Shown here: positions 54,060-58,859 of the stretch, in pieces | Numbering within the stretch: the first letter of the stretch is position 1 | How the letters are laid out: every line of letters starts with the position of its first letter | Assembly: GCA_965215345.1 (NCBI GenBank) | Contig: CBDCDL010000001.1 | Location: 320,163 to 384,162 of the forward strand | Direction: 5' to 3' | Length of the DNA: 64,000 nucleotides | DNA from: Spirochaetia bacterium | GTDB taxonomy: Bacteria; Spirochaetota; Spirochaetia; SZUA-6; Bin103 | Translations under genes and position numbers: made by a program | The notes under the pieces: model-generated | Database searches by the model: none | What the model was told of the DNA's origin: nothing | Seen by the model: only the letters and a program-made list of their open reading frames with translations

Positions 54060-55658
54060 GTGCGCAGATTCAACACGGAAGGTCCCGTCCGTCCGGACAT
54101 GCACTACGCCATCCCGCCGCTCTCCAGGGTAGACCTCGATGAGATCCTGGACATGCTACGGAACGAACGGTACTTCGTGCTGCATGCGCCCCGGCAGACG
54201 GGCAAGACCTCCGCCCTCATCGCGCTGCAGGACCTGCTGAATCGGGGCGAAGCTGGCGATTTCCGGTGCGTGCATACCAACGTCGAGGTCGGCCAAGCGG
54301 CGCGCGAGGACACGGGCCGCGCCATCCGCGCGATTCTGAGCCGTCTGGCCTCTCGGGCTCGTTTGCTGGACGACGAATTCCTGCACAACGCCTGGCGCGA
54401 CATCCTGGCGGCATCCGGTCCCGACGACGCCCTGAGTGAGGCGTTGACGAGTTGGTGCCTGGCCGACCCCACGCCGCTGGTGCTGCTGATCGACGAGATC
54501 GATACCCTCGTGGGCGACACGCTGCTGTCGGTGCTCCGGCAGGTGCGCGCCGGCTACGAGCAGCGGCCCGAGGGCTTTCCGCAGAGCATCGTGCTGTGCG
54601 GCGTGCGCGACGTCCGGGACTACCGCATCCGCTCCGGTTCGGGCGAGATGATCGCCGGCGGCAGCCCGTTCAACGTGGCGGCCGCGTCGCTTCGCCTCGG
54701 CGACTTCTCCGCGGCCGAGACGCGCGCGTTGCTCGCGCAGCACACCGCCGAGACCGGACAGGCGTTCACGCCGGAGGCCATGCAGACGGTCTGGACCCAG
54801 ACCCGGGGCCAACCGTGGCTGGTGAACGCGCTCTGCGCCGACGCCTGCTTCGACCACCCGGCCGGCCGCGACCGCTCGCGGGCCATCACCGCCGCCGACA
54901 TTCTGGACGCCCGCGAGCGGCTGATCCGGAGCCGACGCACCCATCTCGACCAGCTCGCGCACAAGCTGCAGGAGGAGCGCGTGCGGCGGGTGGTGGAGCC
55001 CATGCTGAGCGGCAGCGACGAGCCTGGCTACCATCTCCACGACCTCGACTACGTCCGCGACCTGGGCTTGGTCGCGCAGGGTTCGCCGCCGCGCATCGCC
55101 AATCCGATCTACGCGGAGGTGGTGCCGCGCGAGCTGGGCTACGTGCTGCAGGACAGCCTGGACCAGGAGGTCGCCTGGTACGTGAACGCCGACGGCGGGC
55201 TGAACCTGGACAAGCTGCTGGCCGCCTTCCAGTCGTTCTTCCGTGCGCACTCCGAGCACTGGCTGGAACGGTTCGCGTACCGGGAGGCGGGGCCGCAACT
55301 CATCCTGCAGGCGTTTCTGCATCGGCTGGTGAACGGAGGCGGGCGGATCGAACGGGAGTACGGTCTGGGACGGGGCCGCACCGATCTGCTGATTCTCTGG
55401 CCGGCCGGCGACGGCGCGCCGGAGGCGTGGAGCCGGTTCGTCATCGAGTGCAAGGTCCTGCACGCGGGGCGGCGCCGGAGTCTCGACGGCGTCATCGCCA
55501 CGGGCGTGGAGCAGACGCTGCGCTACCTGGATCGGTGCGGGGGCGAGGCGGGCCATCTGATCGTCTTCGACCGGACGGAAGGAACGTCGTGGGCGGAGCG
55601 GGTGTTCCGCCGGGAGGTGCGCCGGGACGGTCGCACGATCACCGTGTGGGGCATGTAG
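54060..55658 (+). CDS. AAA-ATPase-like N-terminal domain plus PD-(D/E)XK nuclease-like C-terminal domain protein, tandem copy 1 of 3.
   Basis: 532 aa. N-terminal RRFNTEGPVRPDMHYAIPPLSRVDLDEILDMLRNERYFVLHAPRQTGKTSAL (P-loop); LLIDEIDTL (Walker B-like); C-terminal YGLGRGRTDLLILWP...RFVIECKV (D...E.K nuclease core). Family assignment by motif recall (pfam09820/pfam08011-like), not verified. Confidence 0.7.
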   Translation: MRRFNTEGPVRPDMHYAIPPLSRVDLDEILDMLRNERYFVLHAPRQTGKTSALIALQDLLNRGEAGDFRCVHTNVEVGQAAREDTGRAIRAILSRLASRARLLDDEFLHNAWRDILAASGPDDALSEALTSWCLADPTPLVLLIDEIDTLVGDTLLSVLRQVRAGYEQRPEGFPQSIVLCGVRDVRDYRIRSGSGEMIAGGSPFNVAAASLRLGDFSAAETRALLAQHTAETGQAFTPEAMQTVWTQTRGQPWLVNALCADACFDHPAGRDRSRAITAADILDARERLIRSRRTHLDQLAHKLQEERVRRVVEPMLSGSDEPGYHLHDLDYVRDLGLVAQGSPPRIANPIYAEVVPRELGYVLQDSLDQEVAWYVNADGGLNLDKLLAAFQSFFRAHSEHWLERFAYREAGPQLILQAFLHRLVNGGGRIEREYGLGRGRTDLLILWPAGDGAPEAWSRFVIECKVLHAGRRRSLDGVIATGVEQTLRYLDRCGGEAGHLIVFDRTEGTSWAERVFRREVRRDGRTITVWGM

Positions 55659-55672
55659 GGGATACGGTACCT

Positions 55673-57274: not shown

Positions 57275-57289
57275 GTCGAGGCGCAGATT

Positions 57290-58859
57290 CAACACGGAAC
57301 CGTCCCGAGGACCATTACCACGTACCGCCGTTGGAGCGGGTGGACCCGACCAGATCCGGACATGATCCGGGGCAAGCGGTACTTCGTGTGCATGCGGAGG
57401 CAGAGTCAAGACGTCCGCCCTCATCGCCCTGCGGGACCTGCTGAACCGCGGCGAAGCAGGCGACTTCCGGTGCGTGAACGTCAACGTCGAGGCCGCCCAG
57501 GCCATGCGCGAGAACGTGCCGGAAGCCATGCGCGTTATCGTCGGCTCACTCGCGTCCAGGGCGCGCTCGCTCGGTGACGACTTCCTGGACAAGGTCTGGC
57601 TGGACATCCTGGCGGGCTACGGCGCCGGCGCCCTCCGGGAGGCGCTGACCCGTTGGTGCGAGGCGTCGCCCACGCCGCTGGTGCTGCTGGTCGACGAGAT
57701 CGATACCCTGGTCGGCGACACGCTGCTGTCCGTGCTCCGGCAGTTGCGCGCCGGCTACGAGCAGCGGCCCGAGGGCTTCCCACAGAGCATCGTGCTATGT
57801 GGGGTGCGCGACATCCAGGACTACCGCATCCGCTCCGGTTCGGGGGAGATGATCGCCGGCGGCAGCCCGTTCAACGTCGTCGCTAAGTCGCTTCGCCTCG
57901 GCGACTTCTCCGCGGCCGAGACGCACGCGTTGCTCGCCCAGCACACCGATGAGACCGGACAGGCGTTCACGCCGGAGGCCCTCGACATGGTCTGGACCCA
58001 GACTCAGGGGCAGCCGTGGCTGGTGAACGCGCTCTGCGCCGACGCCTGCTTCGAGCATGAACCCGGCCGCGACCGCTCGCGCGCCATCACCGCCGCCGAC
58101 ATCCTGGACGCCCGCGAGCGGCTGATCCAGAGCCGACGGACCCACCTCGACCAACTCGCCCACAAGCTGCAGGAGGAGCGCGTGCGGCGCGTTGTCGAGC
58201 CCATGCTGAGCGGCAGCGACGAGCCTCGATACCATCTGCACGACCTCGACTACGTCCGTGACCTGGGCCTGGTCGCGCAGGGCTCGCCGCCGCGCATCGC
58301 CAATCCGATCTACGCGGAGGTGGTGCCGCGCGAGCTGGGCTACGTGCTGCAGGACAGCCTGGACCAGGAGGTCGCCTGGTACGTGAACGCCGACGGCGGG
58401 CTGAACCTGGACAAGCTGCTGGCCGCCTTCCAGGCGTTCTTCCGCGCGCATTCCGAGCACTGGCTGGAACGGTTCGCGTACCGGGAGGCGGGGCCGCAAC
58501 TCATCCTGCAGGCGTTTCTGCATCGGCTGGTGAACGGAGGCGGGCGGATCGAACGGGAGTACGGTCTGGGTCGGGGCCGCACCGATCTGCTGATTCTCTG
58601 GCCGGCCGGCGACGGCGCGCCGGAGGCGTGGAGCCGGTTCGTCATCGAGTGCAAGGTCCTGCACGCGGGGCAGCGCCGGAGTCTGGACGGGATCATCGCC
58701 ACGGGCGTGGAGCAGACGCTGCGCTACCTGGACCGGTGCGGGGGCGAGGCGGGCCATCTGATCGTCTTCGACCGGACGGAAGGAACGTCGTGGGAGGAGA
58801 AGGTGTTCCGTCGCGAGGTGCGCCGGGACGGTCGCACGATCATCGTGTGGGGCATGTAG
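57290..58859 (+). pseudogene. Tandem copy 3, with the first ~60 codons degraded by indels (P-loop lost). It is intact from the internal ATG at 57474 (461 aa), so possibly expressed as an N-truncated protein.
   Basis: Compared to copy 2 at 55680-55880, region 57290-57473 has multiple indels. CGGCAGACGGGCAAGACCTCC (P-loop) has become GGAGGCAGAGTCAAGACGTCC. ORF 57474..58859 is colinear with the copies from MNVNVEAAQAMRENV. Confidence 0.6.

Follow-up and report, generated by a model that had tools for sequence, protein, structure and literature searches.

A census of the PD-(D/E)XK nucleases published in 2012 lists the families DUF1703, DUF234 and DUF4143, of which only DUF234 is described together with an ATPase, one of the DEXX-box AAA+ type (PMC3424549), and the symbiont Cardinium cCpun carries 25 copies of DUF1703 (PMC6387759). 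Literature searches on the Pfam names retrieved only these two papers and no functional paper. Here we describe a family of genes akin to DUF1703, represented by an array of three tandem copies at 54060-58859 (+ strand) of a 64,000-nucleotide (nt) stretch of DNA from a Spirochaetia bacterium (contig CBDCDL010000001.1), hereafter the window.

The products of the array resemble the DUF1703 proteins (PF09820 plus PF08011) in size and domain order, with an N-terminal strand, an ATPase bearing an xPRxxGK[ST] P-loop and a C-terminal PD-(D/E)XK domain, and the two families have in common the nuclease motif G-R-x-D-L ... E-x-K. The general architecture of DUF1703, i.e., a P-loop ATPase and a D...ExK nuclease in one protein of ~520-560 amino acids (aa), is thus found in the window proteins as well. 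Moreover, both families lack an assigned function, and both comprise multi-copy, recombining paralogues. In contrast to DUF1703, however, copies 1-3 of the array gave no match to PF09820 or PF08011 at E<=1, so that they fall outside both Pfam families, and they bear motifs of their own, an N-terminal FNTxGP...HY and a GQPWLVNAL. Since the architecture is shared but the defining hidden Markov models (HMMs) failed, we would rank the window family, judging by its sequence, as a variant apart from DUF1703.

The array genes encode predicted ATPase-nucleases

Each gene of the array specifies a single polypeptide that is predicted to combine an ORC/Cdc6-STAND-type AAA+ ATPase with a PD-(D/E)XK nuclease. 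The AlphaFold model, built on an alignment of 47 diverse relatives (pLDDT 92.3, pTM 0.90), comprises an AAA+ core, a helical lid and a winged helix within residues 1-~375. The best structural matches of the full model in the PDB were the archaeal Walker ATPases 2qen and 2fna, followed by ORC/Cdc6, RFC and RuvB, and the alignment to 2qen extends across 381 columns. In the predicted model, helices (75-135) come after a strand (69-74) and precede the Walker B strand (140-145), with the lid and winged helix at ~218-360. The model therefore displays two features of the ORC/Cdc6-STAND ATPases: strand 2 leads into a helical insert, and a C-terminal helical bundle precedes a winged helix. The post-strand-2 insert is a recognized hallmark of the ORC/Cdc6 ATPases (PMC12839542).

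The Walker A motif (P-loop) HAPRQTGKTS occupies aa 42-51 and is encoded at 54183-54212 (+) in copy 1, with its equivalent at 55802-55831 (+) in copy 2. Across the 47 relatives, G48 and K49 of this motif are invariant and T50 is nearly so; D145, which lies within the Walker B sequence LLIDEID, and N256 are also invariant. Of the arginines that might serve as an arginine finger, R163 is invariant and R169 nearly so.

The C-terminal region is likewise a predicted nuclease, as suggested by the AlphaFold model with its Foldseek matches, by the motif and by the Pfam matches of the relatives. It spans aa ~380-532, which corresponds to 55197-55655 in copy 1, 56813-57271 in copy 2 and 58398-58856 in copy 3 (all +). 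When residues 371-532 were modelled alone (pLDDT 92.1), the elements followed in the order H41-55, E59-62, E73-78, E87-97, H105-123, E127-134, which is the alpha-beta-beta-beta-alpha-beta core of the PD-(D/E)XK superfamily. The Foldseek matches of this model were almost exclusively PD-(D/E)XK nucleases, with Hjc at the top (probability 0.99) and BamHI, DdmD, MspJI, SPARDA, Cas4, CinB, RecU and Mus81 after it. The motif E409...D442...E463-x-K465 sits on the expected helix 1, strand 2 and strand 3, within GRGRTDLL (aa 437-444) and IECKV (aa 462-466) for its last three residues. Its codons in copy 1 begin at 55284, 55383, 55446 and 55452, respectively; the motif is present in all three window copies, and the four residues are kept in 43, 43, 42 and 39 of the 47 relatives. 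Thus, the P-loop and the D...E.K core that a sequence-only reading of this DNA had pointed out were both located, and structure prediction and Foldseek have added support for the fold.

At the sequence level, a Pfam scan of the three proteins returned generic AAA models only. The score for AAA_22 (PF13401; cut-off 27 bits) was 27.3 in copy 1 and 34.2 in copy 2 and fell below the cut-off in copy 3 (19.6), while AAA_35 (PF14516; cut-off 27 bits) remained below it in copies 1 (24.7) and 2 (25.3) and found no match in copy 3. No Pfam model covers residues ~260-532 of the window proteins, and no nuclease model matched them even at E<=1; the NCBIfam scan gave noise only, and the PDB sequence search gave no match. 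The 47 relatives, scanned singly at E<=0.01, proved more informative: AAA_22 was found in 46 of them, AAA_16 in 41, AAA_35 in 39, AAA_14 in 30, ATPase_2 in 19, PDDEXK_9 in 13 (best E 6.5e-7), AAA-ATPase_like (PF09820) in 10 (best E 9.8e-7), NucS_C in 8 and PDDEXK_3 in 2. The PDDEXK_9 and NucS_C matches provide the third support for the nuclease. Accordingly, the earlier proposal of AAA_35, PF09820 and PF08011 as the domains to be sought held as kinship among the relatives (39, 10 and 13 of 47) and failed as membership of the window proteins in PF09820 or PF08011.

Layout of the array

The array consists of three direct repeats arranged head-to-tail, with periods of 1616 and 1585 nt, in a window with a G+C content of 67.5%. 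As anticipated from the sequence, they are paralogues of ~530 aa, with 532 and 533 aa in the first two copies and a third reduced to 461 aa. Copy 1 (54060-55658, +) is an intact ATPase-nuclease gene of 532 aa with a GTG start, which was placed at 54060 on the strength of the family-wide conservation of the N-terminal RRFNTEGP motif; in the public annotation the gene begins 13 codons downstream. Copy 2 (55673-57274, +) is intact as well and encodes 533 aa, a product identical to the public protein P0001. At 55679-55681 the ancestral ATG has become ATC, and translation probably starts from the TTG at 55673, two codons upstream and 14 nt past the copy 1 stop. Copy 3 comprises a degenerate 5' remnant (57279-57473, +) and an open frame (57474-58859, +) that encodes 461 aa from a GTG or 451 aa from its first ATG (57504), the latter version matching the public protein P0122.

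Where the orthologues have their ATG, copy 1 has GTG (54060), copy 2 ATC (55679) and copy 3 AGG (57279). Weak start codons may hold the expression of the nuclease down. The three copies are probably co-transcribed, since they are co-oriented with spacers of only 4-14 nt, and their products would then probably be able to co-assemble. A promoter and terminator scan of 53-60 kb gave nothing above chance, and Rfam and tRNA scans of the window gave no matches.

Nucleotide identity between the copies, 87.6-91.5% for the pairs over ~1.6 kb, is far beyond chance, and the longest exact shared runs are 293, 150 and 168 nt. The description of the copies as nearly identical over kilobases was therefore overstated. 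The same figures bear on the question whether an assembler might have expanded a single gene into an array. Such an origin draws on the general risk of repeats in metagenome assemblies and on nothing beyond it, and it was dismissed because the copies differ too much (8-12%); moreover, they possess three different 5' ends and two types of an internal cassette (see below), each matched in independent assemblies. A similar tandem arrangement was seen in independent assemblies at the loci L010 and L093, and the public protein collection holds the three products as separate entries of one 976,709-nt contig. The array is genuine, and we consider an assembly artefact scarcely conceivable.

The copy 2/3 junction and the array's end have an 8-nt stretch of post-stop flank in common. 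At this end (58840-58867), a convergent open reading frame (ORF) for a GDSL hydrolase overlaps the final 20 nt of copy 3, and its last codons read through the 8-nt repeat flank after the copy 3 stop. The C-terminus of the GDSL hydrolase may have been reshaped when the array was formed.

Mosaic divergence between the copies

The differences between the copies are distributed very unevenly. Copies 1 and 2 are >=96% identical across ~1 kb, but in a 200-nt cassette their identity falls to ~65%, and none of 2000 permutations reached the observed clustering of differences. The synonymous divergence (dS) of this pair amounts to 0.20 for residues 1-60, 0.90 for residues 61-135, 0.03 for residues 136-330, 0.05 for residues 331-480 and 0.21 for residues 481-532; it thus spans 0.03-0.90, about 30-fold, within one gene. 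The ratio of nonsynonymous to synonymous divergence (dN/dS) is 0.1-0.4 in all five segments.

The cassette corresponds to a variable helical segment that separates strand 2 from the Walker B strand. Copy 1 has a cassette that we call type A (54240-54464, +; aa 61-135). It shows 95% identity to the proteins P0002 and P0003 of other genomes and 62% to copy 2; outside the cassette the relation is reversed, with 98% identity to copy 2 and 88% to P0002/P0003. Copy 2 bears a type B cassette (55859-56080, +), which is also present in copy 3 (57474-57665) with 94% aa identity to copy 2 and has its best matches elsewhere in P0011 (80%) and P0010 (76%). The 5' end of copy 3 represents a third type, beside those of copies 1 and 2: its remnant peptide RPEDHYHVPPLERVD matches P0005-7, P0013 and P0014 of other genomes at 100% identity. 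Among 118 close homologues, the identities of cassette and backbone correlate weakly (r = 0.54); in some pairs of homologues the backbone is 93% and the cassette 45% identical, and other pairs show the reverse.

The simplest account of these data is that the array comprises three old paralogue lineages, the 3' two-thirds of which were homogenised by gene conversion, in addition to a family-wide exchange of cassettes. Gene conversion among old paralogues is indicated by the mosaic of dS values and by the 5' segments, which are nearer to the orthologues in other genomes than to the neighbouring copy. The same observations speak against the view that one gene was triplicated very recently and that copy 3 then decayed neutrally. 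The exact runs (293 nt at most) and the identity of >=96% over ~1 kb between copies 1 and 2, as well as the 8-nt flank common to the copy 2/3 junction and the array end, are what such a triplication would leave behind; the 30-fold range of dS within one gene pair and the affinity of cassettes and 5' ends to other genomes are not. Very recent duplication and gene conversion had been offered side by side in the sequence-only reading, and of the two only gene conversion fits.

Within-genome homogenisation of the same kind was found at the loci L001 and L002, which belong to one metagenome-assembled genome (MAG; OY282375.1). Here the ATPase copies are 97.8% identical vs. 74-85% for the flanking GT-C genes, so that homogenisation or constraint has acted more strongly on the ATPase than on the genes around it. 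The two loci share a segmental duplication of ~4.1 kb that spans a GT-C gene and the ATPase gene.

The array is hence a clear case where gene conversion homogenises paralogues while old divergent modules persist. Furthermore, copies 1 and 2, 98% identical save for one cassette, constitute a natural experiment on whether the cassette sets specificity.

Copy 3: decay or retention

In copy 3, the original start codon at 57279 has changed from ATG to AGG, and the 5' region has suffered an 8-nt deletion, two 1-nt deletions and a scrambling of the P-loop with loss of the invariant G48. Walker A is thereby destroyed, while Walker B, the lid, the winged helix and the nuclease motif are kept. That the N-terminal part, including the P-loop, is lost had been noticed from the sequence, and the mapped lesions agree with it, the frame being open from the GTG at 57474. 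All lesions are confined to the first ~130 nt; the other 1386 nt are free of frameshifts and stops. Residues 136-330 of copy 3 have not been recently overwritten, since their dS to both copies 1 and 2 is 0.22 (dN/dS 0.2), and 15 of the 22 residues specific to copy 3 coincide with the consensus of orthologues in other genomes. Neither this affinity to the consensus nor the crowding of lesions within ~130 nt would be expected of a freshly triplicated gene that decays neutrally, which makes that scenario very improbable altogether.

Most likely, copy 3 is a young pseudogene. A more elaborate possibility, doubtful in our opinion, is that the tandem paralogues form subunits of a hetero-oligomer with recognition set by the cassettes, copy 3 without a P-loop having been selected as a nuclease-only or regulatory subunit. 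If so, an array of different cassettes would widen the range of targets, and the family would represent a new, very abundant single-family defence system whose cassette-based specificity is maintained against gene conversion. N-truncated copies as a recurrent isoform were set aside as a candidate: the truncated homologues at L022 and L023, found in low-coverage contigs, differ in pattern from copy 3, as their P-loop is intact and the frameshift lies downstream of it.

Distribution of the family and its genomic contexts

The family is very large. A word-indexed search returned at least 8000 matches, the best 120 of them at 68-91% identity, and an exhaustive search yielded 5279 clusters at 50% identity with E<=1e-3, 1009 of them with E<=1e-30. 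The closest genomic relatives (63-84% identity) reside in MAGs labelled Entotheonella, Latescibacterota, Gammaproteobacteria, Binatia and Acidobacteriota. The family also occurs in sponge-type symbiont MAGs and sediment metagenomes; a sponge-specific family was nevertheless rejected, because ~50%-identical members are present in many other kinds of metagenomes, including those of gut and lake. A phage origin was likewise rejected on the grounds that 50,697 phage records contained no homologue and 2.9 M viral contigs only one distant relative.

Across the loci compared, no conserved neighbour gene was found. Within 8 kb of the homologues at other loci, we found toxin-antitoxin pairs (VapBC, RelB/ParE, Xre/RES, HicA/TacA), IS1595 and Tn5-type transposases, an AAA_14-DUF4143 gene, a GTPase conflict system, a Bil ubiquitin-like system with cas6, a Dnd-associated methyltransferase and an Mrr-helicase-methylase. 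Neighbourhoods of toxin-antitoxin, defence and mobile-element genes are suggestive of a role in conflict.

At one locus (L013, 4387-9898), the homologue is surrounded by gene fragments, including pieces of Mannitol_dh_C on both sides and a truncated GlgB, and adjoins a Tn5-type transposase and a GAAD/GASH/DO-GTPase conflict system; the whole region is heavily rearranged.

Tandem or clustered copies recur elsewhere: two with a 3-nt spacer at L093, two plus an upstream remnant with 60-nt spacers at L010, and further cases at L006 and L011. More than one family member was present in ~4 of 40 metagenome loci of >=8 kb, and fragments of family genes were found at L004, L005 and L104. Such arrays could be by-products of a selfish, addiction-type gene that spreads by nuclease-driven recombination or homing without a benefit to the host. 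The repeat unit is indeed almost exactly one gene, with spacers of 3-60 nt in four independent arrays; fragments and pseudogenes of the family are common, and the homologue at L013 stands amid gene debris beside its transposase. The identity of 63-84% at the aa level across MAGs labelled as different phyla and the excess similarity of the ATPase copies over their flanking genes in OY282375.1 are also consistent with this mode of propagation. Against it, no terminal repeats, target-site duplications or recombinase accompany the gene; the two junctions of the array are unlike each other, just as in ordinary tandem duplication followed by divergence; and the dN/dS of 0.1-0.4 testifies to long-term selection at the protein level. 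We therefore regard a purely selfish gene as improbable.

Homologues were also found on 15 cyanobacterial and other plasmids. Those on the cyanobacterial plasmids are 39-42% identical and named 'ATP-binding protein', 'AAA family ATPase' or 'AAA-like domain-containing protein' in RefSeq. In Pseudanabaena, 8 plasmids of two strains carry one homologue each (39-41% identity). On two Pseudanabaena plasmids (of L017, L018, L019), it adjoins a tyrosine recombinase and three small divergent genes, with parA/parB also near it on plasmid d (L017), and on another it is located between a Bil ubiquitin-like system and cas6.

The plasmid copies raise the question of a housekeeping function, namely, an ATP-dependent structure-specific nuclease serving repair, recombination or replicon maintenance (junction resolution, plasmid replication or dimer resolution). 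The nuclease finds its best fold match in the Holliday-junction resolvase Hjc, with RecU and Mus81 also on the list, the ATPase resembles ORC/Cdc6, RFC and RuvB, and a single copy per plasmid near a recombinase or partition genes is in keeping with such a role. On the other hand, the presence of several divergent copies in a genome, the frequency of fragments and a patchy context without a conserved partner are hardly typical of housekeeping, and the Pseudanabaena homologue next to cas6 sits in a defence setting. Overall, a housekeeping function seems unlikely to us. A plasmid replication initiator was set aside as a candidate on account of this defence-island copy and of the cyanobacterial plasmid replication proteins described so far, which are the helicase-like CyRepA/CyRepX and belong to another family (PMC10899382).

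A possible role in conflict with foreign DNA

Our best guess at the role of the family, which we hold with slightly better than even confidence, is a self-contained conflict or defence nuclease directed against foreign DNA. In this mechanism, the ATPase-winged-helix module together with the variable four-helix insert would recognise a nucleic-acid target, the insert presumably occupying the place of the DNA-contacting insert in the ORC-type ATPases. ATP-dependent oligomerisation might then bring the nuclease domains together, resulting in DNA cleavage, and no fixed partner gene would be required.

Several observations weigh against a defence nuclease of this kind. Foldseek gave marginal E-values for the nuclease domain (1e-3 to 1e-1). 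The defence-protein HMMs of PADLOC-DB 2.0.0, which had been suggested as a check, gave 0 families at E<=1. The cassette is variable, yet one or more other segments of the protein vary more. Toxin-antitoxin genes are very frequent in these genomes, so that proximity within 8 kb means little. The immediate neighbours of the array itself are cell-envelope and metabolic genes, none of them related to defence; the placement of the array beside toxin-antitoxin and restriction-like genes in the sequence-only reading did not stand, as the toxin-antitoxin pair of the window is ~25 kb away. Finally, homologous arrays of membrane-protein (GT-C glycosyltransferase) genes flank or contain the ATPase gene at L001, L002, L004 and partly L005. 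At these loci the ATPase occupies a position in the cluster other than that in the window, and the link may reflect an unrelated role of the family or shared ancestry plus rearrangement. Hence the defence interpretation derives its backing from the contexts in other genomes and not from the array's own neighbours.

Surroundings of the array

Upstream of the array (42234-54027, +) lie genes for a UbiA prenyltransferase, an FAD_binding_4 oxidase, two large Pfam-less membrane proteins (46284-50321 and 50204-53278, +), the second with a triple C-terminal repeat (52137-53255), and a short-chain dehydrogenase. We assume that this set resembles a polyprenyl-phospho-arabinose/GT-C glycan pathway. Downstream, the convergent GDSL hydrolase is accompanied by a MetE-like gene.

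A fourth member of the family had been reported at 29477-30776 (-). A gene is indeed located there; it has been broken by three or more frameshifts and by an internal deletion, and a toxin-antitoxin pair is nearby. It is not part of the array, and the assignment to the same family has to be corrected: it matches PF09820 (E 9e-37) plus PF08011 and is thus a decayed DUF1703 gene, with only 27% identity to copy 1 over 180 aa and an N-terminal hhalign match to the array at 84% probability. This pseudogene has the same architecture as the array genes and belongs to a different, sister family. It adjoins a C-terminal fragment of a DUF4143 (PD-(D/E)XK-type) gene without the AAA_14 ATPase (28786-29466, -), next to which there is a pair of a MazE/AbrB-type antitoxin and a PIN toxin (28054-28745, +).

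The segment 30873-35140 (-) encodes an XPB/ERCC3-like helicase (33245-35140) beside a 1003-aa protein in which an RNA polymerase alpha-CTD-like domain is joined to Helicase_C_3, an unusual pairing.

On the other side, 2.6 kb from the array, 61464-62699 (-) encodes an AAA_16/AAA_22 ATPase of 411 aa that has a lid and a winged helix and lacks a nuclease domain. In an hhalign comparison (E 0.0045, low probability), it was aligned with positions 33-365 of the family profile, and it is possibly a distant cousin without the nuclease.

Comparison with known systems

The closest solved folds to residues 1-~375 are those of the archaeal-type Walker ATPases 2qen and 2fna (PF01637 ATPase_2, often found with DUF234), with a sequence identity to the window protein of only ~14%. 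AAA_35, the best family-specific ATPase model among the relatives (best E 2e-15), spans the ATPase only, unlike the two-part window proteins. The AAA_14-DUF4143 proteins, in which the two domains are joined in one protein at L011, possess a PD-(D/E)XK domain too, as does DUF234. These nuclease domains belong to families other than that of the window nuclease and have no demonstrated function either.

In McrBC and in the Avs/AVAST proteins with nuclease effectors, which are ATP/GTP-dependent defence nucleases with an AAA+/STAND motor, a nucleotide-dependent oligomer licenses a PD-(D/E)XK nuclease, and the window protein may work alike. It differs from both in that its nuclease is C-terminal and that a sensor array of the TPR/WD40 type is absent. 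Moreover, in contrast to two-subunit systems, it is a single polypeptide of ~530 aa, and it is a member of neither McrBC nor Avs.

An ATPase joined to a nuclease is in itself unsurprising to specialists, being shared with DUF1703. What distinguishes the present case is a family of >5,000 clusters that has no curated model, with half of the protein outside Pfam and 'ATP-binding protein' as its public label. The view that it is functionally uncharacterised was upheld by PADLOC, NCBIfam, PDB sequence and literature searches, all of which yielded nothing on its function. The window family is a sister of DUF1703 without a curated model of its own, the kinship being at the superfamily level, and its recognition as an ATPase-nuclease sister of DUF1703 makes it a candidate that can be tested as a defence or DNA-conflict system of a single gene.

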